Shown: in pieces, positions 4,184 to 60,501 of the stretch
How the letters are laid out: each line of letters opens with the position of its first letter
Numbering within the stretch: position 1 is the first letter of the stretch
Origin: Mobula birostris
Lineage: Eukaryota
Direction: 5' to 3'
DNA: 64,000 bases
NCBI RefSeq assembly: GCF_030028105.1
Contig: NC_092376.1
Coordinates: 87,866,733 to 87,930,732 of the forward strand
The notes under the pieces: model-generated
Told to the model about the DNA's origin: nothing
Seen by the model: the letters and a program-made list of their open reading frames with translations, nothing else
The model's database searches: none
Program-made: the position numbers and the translations under genes

Positions 4184-4810
4184 TAGGATGAGATAAACCC
4201 AACACTGAACTAACAATGTCTGAAAGAGAAGAGTAGGGGTTACACAGATTGCTGTCACAGGAAACTAGGAGAGGTTGAGAACAGCTTCAGGCTGGGCAGC
4301 GAGGTCTCGGTCTGGAGCGTATCACTAGGCGGCGAGGTCTGGGCCCAGAGTATATTGCTGCAGCAAGGCCCAGCCTTAATGCAAGGTACGATTTGCTGTT
4401 TGGACAATTTAAACACTGGCACAGATAGACTGGAAAGTCAGTGTGTTGGGACTGGAGGCGAGGGTCGGGTCGTTTTCATTCTGAGGCTGTGAGACTGTCT
4501 TGGCTGCAGTGCTTCATGTCTGCGAGCTTCATGGCACTGTGCCCCACTAATACGACGAACTAAGACTGAGGAACTTGGATCCATGGACTCAAGTTGGTTC
4601 AGAATTCTGCTGCTCGTTTCTATTGTTTGCATGATTTGTATTTTTTCTCTTTCTTTGCACATTGAGTATTGGTCTTTATTTTATATTTTTGTTACTGGGT
4701 TCTTTCGGGTTTCTTGCTTTATAGTTGCCTGTAAGGAGACGCATCTCAATGGTTGTATAATTTATATATACTTTGATAATAAATGTGTTTTGAGTCTTGG
4801 CATCTTTGAA
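4184..4810 (+). mobile_element. Non-autonomous Rex1-type retroposon with non-coding body
   Basis: 3' tail (ggttgtataa...ctttgataataaatgtgttttga) matches the Rex-type LINE tails in the window; no RT coding. Confidence 0.55.
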
Positions 4811-9552: not shown

Positions 9553-9946
9553 TTCAGGATCGGAATCAGGTTTAACATCGCTGACATATGTCGTGAAATT
9601 TGTTAACTTAGTGGCAGCAGTTCAATGCAATACATGATAATATAGAAAAAAATAAGTAAATCATTACACTAAGTATATATATGTATATTAAATAGTTAAG
9701 TTAAAATTATTGCGAAAACTGAAATAATATATATTAAAAAAGGGAGGTAGTGTTCAAGGGTTCAATGTCCATTTAGGAATCAGATGGCAGAGGGGAAAAT
9801 GCTTTTTCTGAATCGCTGACTGTGAGTCTTCAGGCTTCTGTACCTCCTACCTGATGGTAACAGTGAGAAAGGGGCATGCCCTGGGTGCTGGGGGTCCTTA
9901 ATAATGGATGCTGCCTTTCTGAGACACCACTCCCTGAAGATGTCTT
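9553..9946 (-). mobile_element. Rex1-type LINE 3' end
   Basis: Reverse complement encodes RKAASIIKDPQHPGHAPFSLLPSGRRYRSLK; same family as 51800-52340. Confidence 0.7.
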
Positions 9947-11630
9947 GTGCAGAGGCTAGAACCTGTATGCCCTCCTCTCTATCTGGGATTCTACCAACAA
10001 TGGTTGCAATTTTAGCTTTATGTTAAGCAAGTCTAGATAAAATGCATCCTAAATGTCATTACAAGCACACAGACAGATATCTCTGATGGTGTTAGGATAA
10101 TGTTTATGTGCTTGACCTGCAGAGTATTCAGAGAAGGGGCATGGAAATAGCAGACTTGTTTGAAAATGACTTTGTCGATGTGGCATTTGCTTTTGGTGCA
10201 TCACATTGATTTACAGCAGATAATTATTGGCTGAAATTTCTCATTTATCAGTGTTCTATCAGCCACTTATGCTGCAGTCTAAATGGCATATCAGGTTTTC
10301 GTGTAATAAGAAGCTTTGCTGAATGGTTGAGGTCATAAACATGTGACTTGATTTACTGTGTATACACTCCAAGTGAGCGAAAAACAGGGGCTGCTGTGGA
10401 GAGGTGTTTACATTTACTGATGAGGCAGAGTCAGTTGGTTCAACAAGGAAAATCTCATTGCCCAGAGACAGACTACAGACCTTATTTTACAAAACAGACT
10501 TGCAAGACCTGTTGCCATTGCAAGGCTTGAGCATCATTCCAGTAACTAGACAAGCCTGATGCACCCATCAGTCCTTTTCTCTGGTGCTCCCCTATGTCAG
10601 AGGTGCTATTACAACAGAATTCTGAGGCCTTGTTAATAAATATTCCATCTCATGGCTATAAAGTTAATTTGTCAGCAAGACAGATTAATTTAAATGTCTT
10701 TTTGTGAAAATAATGGAAATAAGCTGTAGTTTCAGGTTAAATCCTTTTACAAAGTTGCATTCTTCTTTCTAATCCACTTGATTCCTCCCCTTCATCCAAT
10801 AAGTCTGCCTCATTTCCAGGGCCATATGCGCAACAGACTGAATATTAACGCCCAAAACTAGTAAGTTCGGGTCATATTTGAGATGAAAATGCATAATGAC
10901 AGCTCCGTGAGTCAATCCCATTTAATGGAGGTGCTACATGGGCCATCCAGTCACTCATCTGTGGAAGCAAGATGGCTCTTTAAGTATTATCACAATGCTA
11001 ATTGTCTTCATTCCATTTAACACACACATAATTCCAGAACTTCATTAATATCCTAGGTGAAAAAAACTGAATTGCTCAGGTCGAATCTTGCTCAGGTCCA
11101 GGAGAATTGAGAATTTTTTGCCCAGGCAATGCAAACAAACCAACTCACTGTGCATAGTCTATACATAGTTTCCCAAACAACTGGATGCCCTGACTAGCCC
11201 TGTGCTTTCAATCCCCATCAGAATCACTGTTTGCACCCAAGTGCTGACATCCTCTGCAATTTGTGAGCACTATCTGATCATTGTCCATTGTTTGCCCAAC
11301 TACTATCAAACACTCACAACTCGATCCAAGCTGCACTGAGCAGCAACAGCATTATGTCACTATCAGATGTACCAATATACCATCATTGTTCACCAATGCA
11401 TCCTGCCCTGATCAGTATTAGATACCCTTAACACAGTTGGAACAACTTTACCCCTGTTCCAAGCCACAAAGTCCCACTTGGATGCAGACTCACACTTCCC
11501 CAAACCTCAGACTGTTTCTTGCCCCCAAGCCGCACAGGATCCAATCCTATGTGATTGGGAATAGTGCTCCACACTATCAGGGAAACCTTTCAAAGTGATT
11601 TCCAAATTATTGACCTTTTGCCAGTACCTC

Positions 11631-15980: not shown

Positions 15981-18093
15981 TCCATTGGTGAGAACTGGTG
16001 AGTAATTGATACTTGCAGACTCAAAAATATCTTACATCACTTTGCTGATGATTGAAAATAAATGGATGAGGGAAGCAGTTGTGAAATCCATGGCTGCCTT
16101 CCTTTGGGACATACTGGTTATTTGGGGCATGAACTCCAATGAGTTCAATAGTTGAACAGTTGAATACAGTAAATGGTTGTTGCATTGCAAACAGCCAGCT
16201 GCACACTCTTAGTGACTGAAAGCCAAACCCTCAGGCTATCTGGTCAAAAGGCAATCTGTGTTATTGAATGTTCATTCACAAATGGTGGCTATCTCTTCAG
16301 TCTTGTTTAAAATTTTCAATATGTTTTCTTAGGTGCTCAAACTAACTTAGTAAATATTACAAAAAATAACCACGTCTTCAAACCGGCAGCTGGTCTCTCT
16401 CATTCTTTGAATGTAATTGGAGTGCTAATATTAAGTTTAAGTTGTGCTGGCTTGTGCAGCCTGAAAACTGAGAGGTTTGCACAGGACTGCACACCACCTT
16501 TGGACACCACAAGGGATAGACCAGAGCAGCACATGGGCAGATATTGTCAAATGAGACCATGCCAGGAAATAGAACATTCAGGGAAGTCCTGGAATAAACT
16601 CTGGTGTCGGGTCAGAATATTTACCACCTGGAGTGACAATGGAGCAGATTGGATTTACTTGTTTTCAGTGGATAACACATGCCTGCTAAGCAGCATAGAA
16701 TGTAGAATAGTACAGCACAGCACAGGCCCTTCAGCCCACAATGTTGTGCCGACCCTCAAACCCTGCCTCCCATGTAAGCCCCCACCTTAGATTCCTCCAT
16801 ATACCTGCCTAGTAGTCTCTTAAACTTCACTAGTGTATCTGCCTCCACCACCTACTCAGGCAGTGCATTCCACACACCAACCACTCTCTGAGTAAAAAAC
16901 CTTCCTCTGATATCCCCCTTGAACTTCCCACCCCTTACCTTAAAGCCATGTCCTCTTGTATTGAGCAGTGGTGCCCTGGGGAAGAGGCACTGGCTATCCA
17001 CTCTATCTATTCCTCTTATTATCTTATACACCTGTATCATGTCTCCTCTCATCCTCCTTCTCTCCAAAGAGTAAAGCCCTAGCTCCCTTAATCTCTGATC
17101 ATAATCCATACTCTCTAAACCAGGCAGCATCCTGGTAAATCTCCTCTATACCCTTTCCAATGTTTCCACATCCTTCCTATAGTGAGGTGACCAGAACTGG
17201 ACACAGCACTCCAAGTGTGGCTGAACCAGAGTTTTATAGAGCTGTATCATTACATCACGACTCTTAAACTCTATCCTTCAACTTATGAAAGCTAACACCC
17301 CATAAGCTTTCTTAACTACCCTATCCACCTGTGAGGCAACTTTCAGGGATCTATGGACATGTACCCCCAGATCCCTCTGCTCCTCCACACTACAAAGTAT
17401 CCTGCCATTTACTTTGTACTCTGCCTTTGTGTTTGTCCTTCCAAAGTGTACCACCTCACTCTTCTCCGGGTTGAACTCCATCTGCCACTTCTCAGCCCAC
17501 TTCTGCATCCTATCAATGTCTCTCTGCAATCTTTGACAATCCTCTACACTATCTACAACACCACCAACCTTTGTGTCATCTGCAAACTTGCCAACCCACC
17601 CTTCTACCCCCACATCCAGGTCGTTAATAAAAATCACGAAAATTAGAGGTCCCAGAACAGACCCTTGTGGGACACCACTAGTCACAATCCTCCAATCTGA
17701 ATGTACTCCCTCCACCACAACCCTCTACCCTCTGCAGGTAAGCTAATTCTGAATCCACCTGGCCAAACTTCCCTGGATCCCATGCCTTCTGACTTTCTGA
17801 ATAAGCCTGCCATGTGGAACCTTGTCAAATGCCTTACTGAAATCCATAAAGATCACATTCACTGCACTACCCTCATCTATATGCCTGGTCACCTCCTCAA
17901 AGAACTCTATCAGGCTTGTTAGACACGATCTGCCCTTCACAAAGCCATGCTGACTGTCCCTGATCAGACCATGATTCCCGAAATGCCCAGAGATCCTATC
18001 TCGAAGAATCTTTTCCAACAGGTTTCCCACCACAGATGTAAGGCTCACTGGTCTATAATTACCCAGACTATCCCTACTACCTTTTTTGAACAA

Positions 18094-21000
18094 AGTCATA
18101 GTCATAGTCATAGTCATACTTTATTAATCCCGGGGGAAATTGGTTTTCGTTACAGTTGCTCCATAAACAATAAATAGTAATAGAACCATAAATAGTTAAA
18201 TAGTAATATGTAAATTATGAAATAAGTCCAGGACCAGCCTATTGGCTCAGGGTGTCTGACCCTCCAAGGGAGGAGTTGTAAAGTTTGATGGCCACAGGCA
18301 GGAATGACTTCCTATGACGCTCTGTGCTGCATCTTGGAGGAATGAGTCTCTGGCTGAATGTACTCCTGTGCCCATCCAGTACATTATGTAGTGGATGGGA
18401 GACATTGACCAAGATGGCATGCAACTTAGATAGCATCCTCTTTTCAGACACCACCGTGAGAGAGTCCAGTTCCATCCCCACAACATCACTGGCCTTACGA
18501 ATGAGTTTGTTGATTCTGTTGGTGTCTGCCACCCTCAGCCTGCTGCCCCAGCACACAACAGCAAACATGATAGCACTGGCCACCACAGACTCATAGATCA
18601 TCCTCAGCATCGTCCGGCAGATGTTAAAGGACCTCAGTCTCCTCAGGAAATAGAGACGGTTCTGGCCCTTCTTGTAGACAGCCTCAGTGTTCTTTGACCA
18701 GTCCAGTTTATTGTCAATTCGTATCCCCAGGTATTTGTAATCCTCCACCATGTCAACACTGACCCCCTGGATGGAAACAGGGGTCACCAGTACCTTAGCT
18801 CTCCTCAGGTCTACCACCAGCTCCTTAGTCTTTTTCACATTAAGCTGCAGATAATTCTGCTCACACCATGTGACAAAGTTTCCTACCGTAGCCCTGTACT
18901 CAGCCTCATCTCCCTTGCTGATGCATCCAACTATGGCAGAGTCATCCGTAAACTTCTGAAGATGACAAGACTCTGTGCAATAGTTGAAGTCCGAGGTGTA
19001 AATGGTGAAGAGAAAGGGAGACAAGACAGTGCCCTGTGGAGCCCCAGTGCTGCTGATCACTCTGTCGGACACACAGTGTTGCAAGCACACGTACTGTGGT
19101 CTGCCAGTCAGGTAATCAAGAATCCATGATACCAGGGAAGCATCCACCTGCATCGCTGTCAGCTTCTCTCCCAGCAGAGCAGGGCGGATGGTGTTGAACG
19201 CACTGGAGAAGTCAAAAAACATGACCCTCACAGTGCTCGCTGGCTTGTCCAGGTGGGCGTAGACACGGTTCAGCAGGTAGATGATGGCATCCTCAACTCC
19301 TAGTCGGGGCTGGTAGGCGAACTGGAGGGGATCTAAGTGTGGCCTGACCATAGGCCGGAGCAGCTCCAGAACAAGTCTCTCCAGGGTCTTCATGATGTGG
19401 GAGGTCAATGCCACCGGTCTGTAGTCATTGAGGCCGCTGGGGCGCGGCGTCTTCGGCACAGGGACGAGGCAGTACGTCGTCCACAGTACAGGAACCCTCC
19501 GGAGCCTCAGGCTCAGGTTGAATTCATGGCGAAGTACTCCACATAGCTGAGGGGCACAGGCTTTGAGCACCCTGGTACTGACACCATCTGGTCCTGCAGC
19601 CTTGCTTGAGTTGAGACGTTTCAGCTGTCTTCTCACCTGTTCAGCTGTGAAGCCCACCGTGGTGGTTTTGTGTGGGGGAGTGGTATAGTCATGAGAGCAG
19701 GGTGGGGGACTGTGAGGAGGGGTAGGAGGGAGAGTGGAATATGTGTTGATTGGGGGCCGACAATAGATGGCTCATGTGGGGGATGGGCAGGGGCCACACT
19801 GTCAAATCTGTTAAAGAACAGGTTAAGTTCATTGGCCCTGTCCACACTGCCTTCCTCTCCATTGCTAGTTTGCCAGAACCCAGTGATGTTCCTCATCCCC
19901 CTCCAGACCTCTCTCATGTTGTTCTGCTGGGGTTTCCACTCAAGCTTCCTCCTGTACCTGTCTTTAGCCTCCCTGATCCTGGCTTTCAGGTCACTCTGTA
20001 TTGCCCTCAGCTCCTCCCTATTTCCATCTCTAAACGCCCTCTTTTTAGCGTTCAGGATGTCCTTAATGTCCTTTGTCATCCATGGCTTGTTATTTGAATA
20101 ACAAAGGACAGTTCTTGTCGGAACATTGCAATCCACACAGAAGTTGATGTAATCAGTGATGCATTCTGTGAGCCCATCAATATCCTCTCCATGTGGCTCA
20201 CAGAGTGCCTGCCAGTCTGTCACCTCAAAACAACCCTGCAGCGCCCCATAAGCCTCCTCCGACCATTTCCTCACTGTCCTCGAGGTTGCAGGTTTACTCT
20301 TCACCAGAGGCATGTAGCAGGGTTTTAGGTGCACCAGGTTGTGATCTGACCTTCCCAATGGGGGAGGGGAGAGGAGCTGTATGCATCCTTAACGTTAGCG
20401 TACATCAAATCCAGAGTCCTCTCCCCTCTGGTTGTACAGCTCACATACTGCGTGAAGTTGGGCAGTGTTCTAGCCATGGTAACCTGGTTGAAGTCACCCG
20501 AGATGGTAATGAGGGCACTCGGGTGCTGGGTTTGTAATCTGGCTATGATGGTGTAGATGATGTTACACGCCGACGTCGGGTTGGCAGAAGGAGGGATGAA
20601 CACAACAACCACAATTGCATGTGAGATTTCCCTTGGCAAATAATATGGCCGGAGTCCAACAGCAAAAAGTTCAATATCCAGGCTACAGACCCGTTCCTTA
20701 ATCGTAATATGCCCAGAATTGCACCATTTGTTATTTATCAGAACCGTCAGCCCCCCACCTTTATGCTTACCGCTCTCTGTGCAATTCTGGTCAGCTCAAA
20801 CTGTCTGGAAGCCCTCTATGGAAACACTTTGATTGGGCATGTCCTCGTGCAGCCACGTTTTAGTGAAGCACATGACACTGCTCTCCCAAAATGTTCTCTG
20901 ACTCCTGACAAGCGCAGTCAGTTTGTCCATTTTATTCCCCAGCGATCTCATATTTCCCGTGATAAGAGAGGGGAGACACGGCTTATAACTTCTCTTCTCC

Positions 21001-21370
21001 AAAAGCCTCTGTTGTCTCGACCGGATCCTCTTCCCTCGCCTTTTTGATCCCCCTCTGCATCCTCTGTGCGTTTTCCTCCAGGTTTCAGCCGGTATATCCC
21101 CTGCTCTGTTCACTAAACCGGCGGGCATGAGCTTAATCAATTGGTCCCTGGAATACACAATGTGGCCATCCTGCTGCCACACTAACGAGACGTGTCCGAA
21201 TGTAACTAATTCCAGCGCTAAAAAAACAAGTAAAACTCTCTCCACCAGCATGTTAGAGAGGATTCAGCTTCAATGTGTTACCGTGAGAAAAAGAAATATA
21301 ACAAATAACTAAGTTGAAAAGTTTAAAAGTAAGAAACTGCGGAGCAACTGTAACCGGCGCATGCACACAG
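18094..21370 (-). mobile_element. Near full-length Rex1/Babar LINE, about 3.3 kb
   Basis: (AGTCAT)4 tail on the + strand at 18094-18117; gggattaataaagta 3' motif; short TSD ACAA at 18090-18093 and 21371-21374; APE and RT coding; about 120-nt 5'UTR. Confidence 0.9.
18239..21251 (-). pseudogene. Rex1 single ORF (APE endonuclease + RT), frameshifted
   Basis: YSRDQL, RGCRGG, GNMRSLGNK, SGDFN, TLDLMY, SDHNLV, KAAGPDGV, YRPVALTS, FFDFSSAFNTI, GAPQGTVLSP, FTDD across four consecutive ORFs. Confidence 0.9.
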
Positions 21371-22300
21371 ACAAGGGGACAACATTCACCTCCCTCCAAT
21401 CCTCTGGTACCATTCCCGTGGACAACGAGGACATGAAGATCCTAGCCAGAGGCTCAGCAATCTCTTCCCTCGCCTCGTGGAGCAGCCTGGGGAATATTCC
21501 GTCAGGCCCCAGGAATTTATCCATTCTAATGTATTTTAACAACTCCAACACCTCCTCTCCCTTAATATCAACATGCTCCAGAACATCAACCTCACTCATA
21601 TTGTCCTCACCATCATCAAGTTCCCTCTCATTGGTGAATACCGAAGTGAAGTATTCATTGAGGACCTCACTCACTTCCACAGCCTCCAGGCATATCTTCC
21701 CACCTTTATCTCTAATCGGTCCTACCTTCACTCCTGTCATCCTTTTGTTCTTCACAAAATTGAAGAATGCCTTGGGGTTTTCCTTTACCCTACTCGCCAA
21801 GGCCTTCTCATGCCCCCTTCTTGCTTTTCTCAGTCCCTTCTTAAGCTCCTTTCTTGCTTCCCTATATTCCTCAATAGACCCATCTGATTCTTGCTTCCTG
21901 AACCTCATGTATGCTGCCTTCTTCCACCTGACTAGATTTTCCACCTCACTTGTCACCCAGGGTTCCTTCACCCCACCACTCTTTACCTTCCTCTTGGGGA
22001 CAAGTGAATGTTTTACAGCAGAATGTTTTAGCTGCAATCAATCGTTTAGTAAAAGAATAACCACAATGCTGAGGAAGCATTTGTCATATTTATTAATAGG
22101 AATGTTCTTACACACTTATTGCAAGTTACTTGTTATCTTCCACCAAAGGAATTTAGTACAAAGTCTGAGTGCCTGATTGTTGTATTTTCTTTTTCTCTCA
22201 GCCAGTTAAATCATACTTGTCAGGGAAGGACAGGTGGTTTGAGCAGCAACTGATAATGCGATATTGCCTCAACAACACATTGGCCTAAATACAGTGCAGG

Positions 22301-39044: not shown

Positions 39045-39660
39045 GAGTGCGGAGCTTAGTCAAGATGGTGCTGAATGGTGACTGTTGCTTGCATCTTTGG
39101 AAACAGCTCTATTTCCATCTTCAATATCTCTATTTTTCCCTTTCAGGGTTCTTTTGGAGACCCTGACCTGGAGTTACATGCTGAATTTGGTTCTTTGAGG
39201 GAATGGGACTTGATCTCAGGGCCTCACGACTGGCCGTTATCTGACATGCCAAGGGCGCGGCCTAAGAATTTGACACGCCTTTGGAGGCCTAGGATCTCAG
39301 GGCTCTGGAGATGTGCAGATTAAATGTTAGTGTTCCAGACTTGTGTGTTGTGGGAGCTGGAGGATCATTGACTGTGTGCCCAGAGACCTGAGATCTTCAC
39401 TCGCAGAGCTCGGAAAAAGCGACGCAACGAACTTCTAACATCCGTTACCATTTGTTGGTGGGGGGAGGGTGGATCATAGTTTGCTGCTGCTTATGCACGG
39501 GAGGGAGAGGAGCTGGGGCGGACTTAGTGTTTCTAACATTTAACTGTCATTCATTCTTAGGAGCACTCTGTTTTTGTGGATGCTTGTGAAGAAAAAAAAT
39601 TTCAGGATGTATATTGTATACATACTTCTGACATTAAATGTACTTTCGAAACCTTTGAAA
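39045..39660 (+). mobile_element. Apparently complete non-autonomous Rex1-type retroposon
   Basis: 5' caagatgg start motif, CpG-containing non-coding body, tail aatttcaggatgtatattgtatacat...gacattaaatgtactttcga. Confidence 0.65.
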
Positions 39661-49867: not shown

Positions 49868-50496
49868 CAAGGGGTGATTGATAAGTTCATGGCCTAAGAT
49901 AGAAAGAGTCAATTTTAGAAAACCTAGCACATTTATTTTTCCTACATTTACACACTTAGTCCAGCAATTGTGGAGCATACGGATCTCTTCTTTGTAGAAG
50001 TCAGCGTCTTGGACCTCCAGAAGTGGTCCACAGCAGGGGTGATTGATAAGTTTGTGGCCTACGGTAGAAGGAGATAAGTTATTAACTTCAAACTTTCTGC
50101 ATTTTCACTCAAAGAGTTGAACTGCATGTGCATGTAACTAGAGTGATATAAGTCATCTCCTTTTACCTTAGGCCACGAACTTATCAATTGCCCCTGCTGT
50201 GGACCACCTAGAGGTCCAAGATGCTCTCGTTACATGCATGTGCAGTTCAACTCTTTGAGTGATAATGCAGAAAGTTTGAATAACTCATCTCCTTCTACCT
50301 TAGGCCACAAACTTATCAATCACCCCTGCTGTGGACCACTTCGACAAAGAAGGGATCCGTATGCTCCATGACCGCTGGACTAAGTGTGTAAGTGTAGGAG
50401 GGGACTACGTTGAAAAATAAATGTTCTAGGTTTTCTAAAATTGACTCCTTCTACCTTAGGCCACAAACTTATCAATCACTCCCCCCCACCCCCGTG
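49868..50496. mobile_element. Mariner-derived fold-back MITE
   Basis: TA TSD at 49866-49867 and 50497-50498; TIR aggggtgattgataagtt...ggcctaaggtagaagga present five times; transposase C-terminus on both arms. Confidence 0.88.
50340..50420 (+). pseudogene. Mariner transposase C-terminal fragment
   Basis: FDKEGIRMLHDRWTKCVSVGGDYVEK* matches the mariner terminal motif GIxxLxxRWxKCVxxxGDYxE. Confidence 0.85.
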
Positions 50497-51799: not shown

Positions 51800-52340
51800 G
51801 GATACCTAGACTGGATATATCTATGGATGTACTGTGAAGAGCATTCTGACAGGTTGTTTCATCCTCTGGTGTGGGGGCAGGGGGAGGAGGGTCTACCACA
51901 CAGAATCAAAAGAAGCTACAGAAAGTTGTAAAGTTATTCAGCTCCATCTTGCATACTAGCCTCCATTGTATCCAAAACATCTTCAAGGAGCGGTGCCTCA
52001 GAAAGGCTGCGTCCATTATTAAGGACCCCATCACTCGGGACATGCCCTCGTCTCATCATTACCATCAGGCAGGAGGTACAGAAGCCAAAGGCAAACATTC
52101 AGCAATTTGGGAATGGCTCCTTCCCCTCTGCCATCCGATTTCTGAATGGATATTGAGCCCATAAATACTACCTTACTTTTTTTATTATTTCTGTTCTTGC
52201 ACTACTAGTTTTATATTTAACTATTTAATATACATATATAATTTTTTTTTATATTTATCAGGTATGTATTGTACTGCTGCCACTAAGTTAACAAATTTCA
52301 CAACATCACAATTGCTCACCTTTTCTGATTCTGAGTCTGA
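51800..52340 (+). mobile_element. Rex1-type LINE 3' fragment
   Basis: QKKLQKVV...ERCLRKAASIIKDP; tail tctgattctgagtctga. Confidence 0.75.
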
Positions 52341-58154: not shown

Positions 58155-58602
58155 TTATAGTTCAGTATTTCTATTTAATATGAGAGAATGTATTCAATAT
58201 ACTGCCTGAAATTTTTGTTCTTCGTATACATCCATGAAAACAGAAGGGTACCCCAAACAATGAGTGACAATAAAAAAGTTAAGATCCTAAAGCCTCCCAC
58301 ACACAAGCAGCAACACAGCATCAACTATCCCCCTGCCCCTCTTACATCAGCAGAAAGTGTCAGCACCCTTCACCCACCAAGCAAGCAATAGTAAAGCCCA
58401 CAGTAGAGACCATGATCTGCAGTACCACAAAAAAACTCATCGTTCACCCACAGGCTCTCTCTCTCTCTCACTAATAAAGGGGCAGAGAGCTGTCACATGG
58501 TGAGAGGGGAGGCTAACTAGAAAGAAACATATTGTTCTTTACGATGCTACAGTCTGTCGCATTGTGTTTTTTCACAAATTCTCCGACTCGGGAATCAGCA
58601 AC

Positions 58603-59417
58603 AGTCACGTACCCCATGATGGGTTAAAGAACCAGCAGAAATAGAAAACACTTTGGGGTCTGGTATTATTATTCACTAATACTATTTATTAGTAACTACA
58701 CAATACAGTCATATAAATTCAGATATATCAAACAGGTTAGCAAAGATTATATGTATATAAGTGTGGAAATATAAAAACCACGCTTCTTCAAGTCTAGGGG
58801 TAAATAGATATAGTCTTACAATGATGAGTAAAGTTCAGTTCAGTTCGTGGTATTGAGTTGAGTAGTGATGGAGAGAGAGAGAGAGAGTTTGAGTCTTCTG
58901 ATGAGCTGATGCCGTCGATCTTCCCGTTGTCCTCCGAAATCCTTTAGAAGTCACCGAATGTGACCACAACAAAGGGGACCGTTCTTCTGTGGTGGAATTA
59001 TCAACCCAGGAGGGGGTTGGACACACGAATAACTCCCCACCGGTCACACCTTTTCCCCACTGCGAGAGCCACTGATTGATTCTCCTGATCAATCCTCCAA
59101 AAACCCACCCTTTCTGTGGGTACAACAAAACTCATCCAGTGCCAAAATCATGTGTCTGTGGGTCTATCATCTGACCTTCTATTTATCTCACCGTGCTGAA
59201 CACCAGCTGTCCATCAAGTAGCTCCACCTTTCTCTCTCTGTAAGAACACAGAAGCTGGCTGTGTCCTTGCAAAAGACATGCTGCAGAGAAGCCATAACAC
59301 CATCTCAAAGCAATCTCCGCCTCTCTCTCTTAATAACAAGGTGTCTGTGTCGAACAACTCTCTCTCTCTTTTAAAAGCACAGTTCATAAAAAATATGACC
59401 CCCAGGGGTACATAACA
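58603..59417. mobile_element. Solo LTR, 815 bp
   Basis: 13-bp terminal inverted repeats (A/T)GTYAYGTACCCC; perfect 5-bp TSD GCAAC at 58598-58602 and 59418-59422. Confidence 0.85.
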
Positions 59418-59438
59418 GCAACAAACTTTCCCCCACCA

Positions 59439-59576
59439 NNNNNNNNNNNNNNNNNNNNNNNNNNNNNNNNNNNNNNNNNNNNNNNNNNNNNNNNNNNNNN
59501 NNNNNNNNNNNNNNNNNNNNNNNNNNNNNNNNNNNNNNNNNNNNNNNNNNNNNNNNNNNNNNNNNNNNNNNNNNNN
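59439..59576. other. Assembly gap (138 N)
   Basis: Run of N. Confidence 1.
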
Positions 59577-60501
59577 CTCCCACAATGCTTCAGTAGGCGA
59601 CACTGGCATAGAATTGGCTCGTCCCCGGAGCTGCAGAGCCTCAGCACCCCAAGGGTGTGCTCATCTTCTAGGCCACATCCTTAGGAAATCGAGAAACAGC
59701 TGGTCAGTCAGCCTGGCAATGGGAACCATCTCCATAAAGGGCTGTAGTTCATGGACTTCAAGGAACCCCATCCACCTTGAAAAGGGAAAAAAAAAACATC
59801 AATGGTAAAAATTAAGCTGTCTCTGCAGGTGAGCTTGAAGAAGCGGCTCTCTAGCGCCATCGTGGCTCTGCCAGTTAACCTGACCTCTGTGGTTGGGGAG
59901 TTGTTGGAGTCCATTATTAAGGATGAGGTTTCAGAGTATTTGGAGGTAGATAATAAAATAGGCTAATGTCAGCATGGTTTCTTTAAGGGGAATCTTGCCT
60001 GACAAATCAGTTGGAATTCTTTGAGGAAATAACAGGGCAAGATAGACAAAGGAGAGTCAGTAGATATTGTTCACTTGGATTTTGAGAAGCCTTTGACAAG
60101 GTGCTACACATAAGGCTGCTAAACAAGATACAGTAAGATTCCATAGTATTAGAGGAAAGATACCAGCATGGATAGAAGATTGGCTGACTGGTAGAAGGCC
60201 AAGAGTGGGAATAAAGGGAGCCATTTTTTTTGGTTGGCTCCTGGTGACTAGTTATGTTTTGCAGGAGTTCCCTTTTAGATCAGAGATGAGGAGGACTACC
60301 TTTAACCAGGGGCTATGAATTAGTGGATTTCATTGCCACTGGTGGCTGTGGTGGCCAAGACAAAGTGGAAGTTGATAGGTTCTTGATTATTAATGGACTC
60401 AAAGGTTCTGTGGAAAAGACAGCGGAATGGGGTTAAGAGGGATAATAAATCACCTTGATGGAATGGTAGAGCAGACTCGATGGGCCGAATGGCCTAATTC
60501 T

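Follow-up and report, generated by a model that had tools for sequence, protein, structure and literature searches.

Complementary sequences located close to the two ends of Rex1 retrotransposons persist under sequence turnover in about twenty distant Rex1 relatives, and the helix that they can form is kept in three non-coding families as well. It is likely that the Rex1 RNA closes into a loop which is recognised by the element's own copying enzyme. The starting point was a stretch of 64,000 nucleotides of Mobula birostris DNA, termed the window, in which a sequence-only reading had noticed a Rex1 LINE with a perfect 14-nt match between its ends and had supposed that selection acts on the end-to-end pairing. 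This supposition is strongly supported by cognate pairing far in excess of permuted pairing, by held-out loci, by arm swaps and by a common register, the letters of the arms being different among lineages.

It is not settled how a LINE protein singles out the intact RNA from which it was made; for the stringent LINEs, the 3' stem-loop alone is taken to be the answer. A base-paired closure of the 5' and 3' ends throughout a clade would add a cyclisation step that has so far been known from LTR elements and RNA viruses.

Structure and identity of the window element

The element (Table 1) is inserted in a CR1 LINE, whose frame resumes on either side of the insertion, and is flanked by a 4-nt target duplication, with two additional letters at the 5' junction. 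Behind a 5' UTR of 117 nt, the frame encodes in order a hydrophobic N-terminus, an AP endonuclease, an RT (PF00078) and PF09004. The open frames of relatives are near 1000 codons, and the endonuclease PF03372 was matched in one of them (L032) at an E value of 5e-4, below the curated cut-off. The AP endonuclease lies upstream of the RT in one frame without an ORF1, and a conserved 3' UTR is followed by short tandem repeats, with frequent 5' truncation of the copies, which are the hallmarks of Rex1/Babar. Likewise, a single EN-RT frame without ORF1, a conserved 3' UTR, a short repeat tail and mostly 5'-truncated copies are described for Rex1/Babar (Volff et al. 2000, as given in PMC6274825; PMC13343379). 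The forward Rex1 primer RTX1-F1, whose sequence is given in the accessible part of PMC3728117, matches 19190-19210 with one mismatch in 21, and the reverse primer site holds 8 mismatches in 24. Just 26-28% identity is shared between the RT and the CR1 RTs of the same window, compared with 39-75% to many other full-length proteins and 79-81% to teleost proteins. On these sequence features, the element is filed as Rex1/Babar; the RT tree was composed of the relatives found here.

The teleost likeness of the RT region (18239-19771), in a host whose repeat types suggest a cartilaginous fish, fits the Rex1 transfers between rays and teleosts that are reported in the available text of PMC13343379. 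At the start of the frame (21251-21190, minus strand), a hydrophobic, signal-peptide-like stretch precedes a YSR-D-x-L motif, and comparable stretches seem to precede this motif in the upstream regions of two distant relatives (L231 and L148). The first 12 nt of the window family (L031-L050) form a palindrome at the element start, GCGCATGCGC, which we take to resemble an NRF1 site and which might act as an internal promoter.

Table 1. Features of the window discussed in the text, in positions of the 64,000-nt stretch
Feature	Position	Strand	Remark
Full-length LINE copy filed as Rex1/Babar	18094..21368	-	Single EN-RT reading frame, broken here
Target-site duplication, 3' copy	18090..18093	-	5' copy at 21371-21374
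5' leader of the Rex1 copy	21355..21368	-	Relatives carry 16 extra nt, the site of P1
5' arm of the predicted long-range helix P2	21341..21354	-	14-nt match, a G-U pair and two further pairs
Reading frame, first ATG to stop	18239..21251	-	Four open pieces in the window copy
3' arm of the predicted long-range helix P2	18149..18162	-	Perfect inverted match to 21341-21354
Linker between P2 and the 3' stem-loop	18142..18148	-	18145 is the truncation peak in relatives
3' stem-loop region P3	18126..18141	-	Opens with AATTT, a motif that Rex1 elements conserve
AATAAA hexamer and 6-nt tail repeats	18094..18125	-	
f2, non-coding Rex1-tailed family	39045..39660	+	Window copy internally shortened
f3, non-coding family related to f2	58160..59865	-	Usually about 850 nt; window copy longer
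f4, non-coding, 5'-truncated copy	4268..4800	+	3' arm only

The 14-nt match in the window family

The two arms represent the sole 14-nt inverted match in the 3277-nt stretch. In 3000 dinucleotide shuffles of the two ends (120 nt at the start and 150 nt at the end), no match exceeded 12 nt. When relatives were fetched by their 5' end, both ends were present in 18 of 20. Among the 17 full-length copies scored, all 14 Watson-Crick pairs were found in 7, at least 13 in 12 and at least 12 in 16. The G-U pair that had been said to extend the helix is present in every one of these 17 copies, and past one variable position two more pairs follow. A variant of the 3' arm with a U-U mismatch is common, occurring in 6 of the 17 full-length copies and in most truncated copies. 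The 5' arm does lie near the RNA start as had been stated, but its exact position needs correction, the family 5' end being 16 nt longer than that of the window copy, whose 5' hairpin was lost through a deletion between two 6-nt repeats.

A chance match, or a one-off 5' inversion of the window insertion, would have left other copies and families without the complementarity, a case that did not occur. The pattern is common to the whole family and, with different sequences, to many lineages; nothing in favour of such an origin was found, and this explanation, already refuted by the relatives, can practically be discounted.

Cognate pairing across Rex1 lineages

A metagenome sample yielded 461 relatives, from which 80 loci were kept and 27 with a near-whole frame were examined. 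At first look, the 3' partner (32 nt before AATT) paired in many of these 27 loci just behind a GGCG motif, which is located 300-500 nt upstream of the frame. Six loci without the 5' motif or the tail were dropped, and two (L179 and L185) were set aside as being without a 5' end. Every 5' arm was then compared with every 3' arm in the remaining 19 elements and one window-family copy, the arm windows having been fixed by motifs after the first look at the data, with three anchors moved by hand; counting the held-out loci described below, the hand-set anchors were those of L152, L172, L194 and L236. Cognate arms displayed a mean energy of -24.4 kcal/mol versus -14.8 kcal/mol for permuted arms in these 20 elements (z = -10.5, p = 1e-5). 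Among 22 candidates, the element's own arm came first in 12 of the 20 and first or second in 16, and the pairing exceeded that of shuffles at p < 0.05 in 17, with L159, L176 and L217 as the exceptions. Little pairing is seen in L159 and L217, and none in the two elements that were set aside.

The RT identity among 23 elements ranges from 34 to 83% with a median of 42%, the interval of 54-81% being represented by just two elements. Under a fixed rule, six held-out loci were scored, two of which retain both ends, one being hand-anchored and three lacking an end; L232 was best of 23 in both directions, and L234 was second and first. Moreover, swapping of the arms in 11 disjoint pairs, eight of them tree sisters, weakened the pairing in 10, and the sole exception was a pair whose arms are 85-88% alike. 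Complementary sequences near both RNA ends are accordingly kept by covariation, in the manner of the Ty1 CYC type. A scan for the longest exact inverted match in wide flanks of 30 metagenome elements gave only 6-11 nt and one simple repeat, the helices being imperfect, so that duplexes have to be scored from anchors.

Terminal inverted repeats of a DNA transposon or MITE were also considered as a class and rejected: the arms lie inside the termini, the element finishes in a repeat tail on its 3' side, and a 5' end is absent from about 99.7% of the copies.

Architecture of the paired ends

Co-folding of the ends revealed a common order, in which a 5' hairpin (P1) is followed by the helix (P2), a short linker, the stem-loop (P3), AATAAA and the tail. 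P2 contains a median of 19 predicted pairs, begins 0-2 nt behind P1 in 21 of 23 elements, and ends 4-7 nt ahead of the AATT motif in 21 of 23. This register is observed in 19 of 23 cognate arm pairs versus 54 of 506 non-cognate ones, and the fixed arm spacing points to a bound junction. In the full-length MFE folds, P2 is present in five of six elements, and the sixth carries a second arm-like stretch in its 5' region. In the 5' region of L191, a second hairpin-end with an arm-like stretch was noted about 120 nt downstream of the first.

The energy of P1 is weak, with a mean z of -0.74 and values below -1 in 9 of 23 elements. In the 10 of 23 elements that can be aligned, P1 covaries around a G-A mismatch, with 85% of the cells paired and seven cells changed on both sides; such pairing was equalled by 0-1 of 500 shuffles, which related sequences can beat. 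An Rfam covariance-model search returned no family, the best match being at chance level (E 0.62).

Non-coding families with the same ends

The sequence-only reading had claimed that the arrangement recurs in three non-autonomous relatives, in one of them weakly. The claim holds for f2 and f3, which are counted as one lineage because the families are relatives of each other, but not for the copy at 4184-4810, which is without a partner arm. Both f2 and f3 measure about 800-860 nt, display no RT similarity and possess longest open frames of 121 and 68 codons, respectively; their resemblance is confined to the ends, which are 67-72% alike. The f2 helix comprises 21 paired positions in 24-26, and f3 combines a 15-bp inner helix with a distal helix. 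The helix covers about 21-22 positions in 25 f2 and 8 f3 copies with both anchors. The two families differ in 6 of 8 internal-loop letters versus 3 of 44 helix letters.

As for f4, family matches in the window copy start at about 4268, and fuller copies do have the partner arm. Probing with the f4 3' arm placed the best partner next to a shared start motif, at a distance of 745-795 nt upstream, in 4 of the 15 copies whose tail was scored, and the pairing amounted to -29.8 to -40.0 kcal/mol. The 3' arm can therefore predict the true 5' end of an element, which worked for f4.

Truncation footprint in insertions

Exact matches to a 5' 22-mer number 48 versus 15,873 for a 3' 22-mer, and about 0.3% of the copies are full-length. 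Complete f2 copies (24 of 70) show no excess over window-family copies that reach 850 nt (22 of 90), as predicted by length. Nearly all copies being truncated, the helix does not secure 5' completion or joining. Of the three functions put forward by the sequence-only reading, namely selection of full-length RNA, a switch between translation and reverse transcription, and positioning of the 5' end for second-strand joining, the last finds no support.

To map the truncation points, consecutive loci were sampled from the beginning of one contig (C1). A stem-loop pattern gave 90 insertions, of which 21 end 14-21 nt upstream of AATAAA and one in the next 70 nt. A tail-only pattern gave 91 unique loci, a set overlapping the former, in which three insertions end within the stem-loop, five at 14-17 nt and 13 at 18-21 nt upstream of AATAAA (10 of them at 20); a single end falls at 22-37 nt, within the arm, which begins at 24. 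In window coordinates, 10 of the 91 ends lie exactly at 18145 and 13 at 18143-18146, that is, 3-6 nt ahead of the helix and at 27-fold over background (91 loci). Expressed per nucleotide at risk, truncation amounts to 4.1% at 18-21 nt upstream of AATAAA, 0.34% in the stem-loop and 0.09-0.16% beyond. In 40 fresh loci, six insertions end at 19-20 nt.

Extra T's or linker letters that had been copied anew were seen at several junctions; short target duplications could be made out at some of the insertions, a minority. In ultra-short insertions, part of the linker or stem-loop is often present a second time at the 5' junction (L281, L290, L296, L329, L372 and L519). Such partial second copies point to the RT jumping back after a stall.

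The f2 linker exhibits no stop peak (1 of 70), and five more insertions stop inside the helix. No sharp peak was seen in a CR1 control either, at most 3 of 50 ends falling in any 4-nt window, although mixed subfamilies render this control weak. The stop peak is real for the window family and fits a stall at the perfect helix, in one family and without replication in f2. It suggests a helix standing on the template at the start of reverse transcription, for which a peak of this kind is expected, and it could also come from initiation that aborts at the stem-loop, independently of P2.

Which strand pairs

Across 23 lineages, the sense and antisense strands exceed their backgrounds equally (-10.3 and -10.0), and the interior mismatches display no G-U excess (6 G-U versus 5 A-C). 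In f2 and f3, which form one lineage, the fixed G-U wobbles belong to the sense strand, whose folds reach -20.7 and -22.5 versus -15.3 and -15.2 for the antisense strand, a difference of 5-7 kcal/mol. Pairing on the sense RNA is accordingly suggested by the window-family stop peak and the fixed f2/f3 G-U pairs, not by the 23-lineage test.

The equal behaviour of the two strands is what would be anticipated if the complementarity acted on the first-strand cDNA or the 5' junction, folding the cDNA end back to the target for second-strand joining. However, the 5' end is retained in so few copies, insertions truncated anywhere were still integrated, complete f2 copies are not in excess, and the helices of f2 and f3 lose strength on the antisense strand, so that this explanation is regarded as highly improbable. 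A slightly better chance, which nevertheless is poor, is given to the arms being a functionless by-product, the RT occasionally copying one end into the other by a template jump or fold-back and thereby renewing the inverted repeat. Template jumps do occur at the linker, as evidenced by the re-copied junction letters, and the perfect arm match in the window family and the lack of an overall G-U excess would agree with such copying. Yet the helices of most lineages are imperfect, with bulges and loops, and keep the same register; the changes between f2 and f3 avoid the helix; and in 21 of 23 elements the helix follows a covarying hairpin by 0-2 nt, a position that a copying accident would not produce.

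Possible mechanism

The preferred reading is that an RNA panhandle unites the two Rex1 ends in a single structure, which the EN-RT protein recognises, a proposition whose chances we judge to be evenly divided. In this model, the complementary arms would pair in the sense RNA and the ends would close into the predicted panhandle. The EN-RT protein would bind the 3' stem-loop, by analogy with L2-clade LINEs (accessible part of PMC4176376), and would meet the 5' hairpin stacked on the helix, RNAs with both ends presumably being preferred as templates. Once the tail and the stem-loop had been copied, the RT would have to melt the helix, a step that may fail in about one event in seven in the window family and would then give rise to 45-nt insertions. 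Since Rex1 is without an ORF1 protein, as stated in the accessible text of PMC13343379, RNA structure may do part of the template selection.

Alternatively, the helix might be a real RNA pairing which serves translation control or RNA stability, with the RT recognising the 3' stem-loop alone and colliding with the helix. In the former version, a cap hairpin together with the helix (-20 to -40 kcal/mol, 25 nt inside) would block scanning after the first round of translation; in the latter, the helix would shield both RNA ends from decay. The 5' arm lies at most 30 nt from the start and precedes the ATG by about 90 nt, the stop peak equally fits a passive obstacle, and the bound element in L2 LINEs is the 3' stem-loop (PMC4176376, in its accessible part), all of which would suit this alternative. 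It is at odds with the non-coding f2 and f3, whose helix is retained while the loop alone has changed, and with the fixed distances of 4-7 nt to AATT and 0-2 nt to P1 (21 of 23 each), which are needless for stability alone. This alternative, although the strongest competitor of the preferred reading, is considered rather unlikely, and recognition of the panhandle is favoured because of the fixed spacing, the non-coding families keeping the helix without anything to translate, and the stop peak.

A further set of elements bears on how strictly the 5' end is needed. RSg-1 is assumed here to be Rex1-like. Among the SINEs tabulated in a review (PMC3747384), SINE2-5_NV combines a tRNA head with a Rex1 tail, and three salmonid SINEs possess RSg-1 tails. 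Given tRNA-headed SINEs with Rex1-type tails, mobilisation in trans may do without a Rex1 5' end; these SINEs speak against a strict need for the 5' end, and their listing is in line with the translation or stability alternative.

Extended to the whole clade, the panhandle might constitute a two-ended promoter of reverse transcription, in which the RT would start only or mostly on end-paired RNAs in the manner of flaviviruses; this extension by analogy is tentative and somewhat more doubtful than not. Should it be true, it would explain the both-ended non-coding parasites, and the thousands of 45-nt insertions would be the fossil footprint of RT stalls at the helix.

Comparison with known systems

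An account of 5'-3' complementarity in Rex1 or any other LINE was not found in the open full-text literature, the original Rex1 paper, Repbase, subscription journals and supplements lying outside the scope of the search. The accessible portions of PMC6274825, PMC7599744, PMC8872380, PMC13343379, PMC12222951, PMC11485995 and PMC11194090 give no such account for LINEs, and neither a 5'-3' complementarity, nor a 5' hairpin, nor a stop peak is mentioned where Rex1/Babar is described in those of PMC6274825 and PMC13343379.

The closest architectural likeness to the Rex1 panhandle is orthoflavivirus cyclisation (SLA with UAR/DAR/CS), which shares a 5' stem-loop, complementary termini and a 3' stem-loop, the polymerase bound at the 5' structure being delivered to the 3' end (PMC12168079, accessible part). 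In contrast with Rex1, orthoflaviviruses are RNA viruses with an RNA-dependent RNA polymerase, and a protein at the Rex1 5' hairpin is hypothetical. The CYC5-CYC3 pairing of Ty1 is, like that of Rex1, a short long-range 5'-3' helix in a retrotransposon RNA, and is described as critical for reverse transcription and transposition in the text available from PMC3681743 and PMC7969010. Ty1 is an LTR element that is tRNA-primed inside Gag particles and undergoes strand transfers, whereas Rex1 has no LTR, primer site or Gag and is primed at the target. Neither the Ty1 nor the orthoflavivirus cyclisation is homologous to the Rex1 arrangement.

Among LINEs, the stringent L2-clade members UnaL2, ZfL2-1 and ZfL2-2 share the 3' stem-loop and tail repeats, which are recognised by the region between EN and RT; unlike in the Rex1 proposal, only the 3' stem-loop is involved, and the accessible part of PMC4176376 describes no 5' partner. 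In R2 elements, a structured RNA at the 3' end positions the template as it would in Rex1, and a role for 5' RNA has been proposed for R2Bm; unlike those of Rex1, the R2 ends are linked through protein and not by base pairing, as far as PMC12222951 and PMC11194090 are accessible. If kept over the whole clade, the panhandle could be the structural feature, so far unexplained, to which Rex1 without ORF1 owes its frequent horizontal transfer, a question raised in PMC13343379. In addition, compact elements with a single ORF and defined RNA ends are attractive for gene-insertion tools.

Further Rex1-related sequences

A protein search of the element's own genome for further autonomous Rex1 families returned matches that looked like the window family, several of them at known places, and a viral contig collection contained no relative of the window Rex1. 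Internally deleted derivatives that retain both ends are exemplified by L041 and by contig joints from 18320/18374 to 20548-20649, and have been found in the element's own genome and in contigs of related organisms. Bacterial genome bins were seen to contain animal Rex1 elements, complete or fragmentary, as contamination (L231-L236 and L241-L249). An older Rex1-like family is represented in the window by 3' fragments at 9580-9950 (minus strand) and 51815-52335 (plus strand), for which there are 9562 candidates. Finally, positions 49870-50482 of the window harbor nested inverted repeats of 57-71 nt that are 88-97% complementary and appear fold-back or MITE-like.
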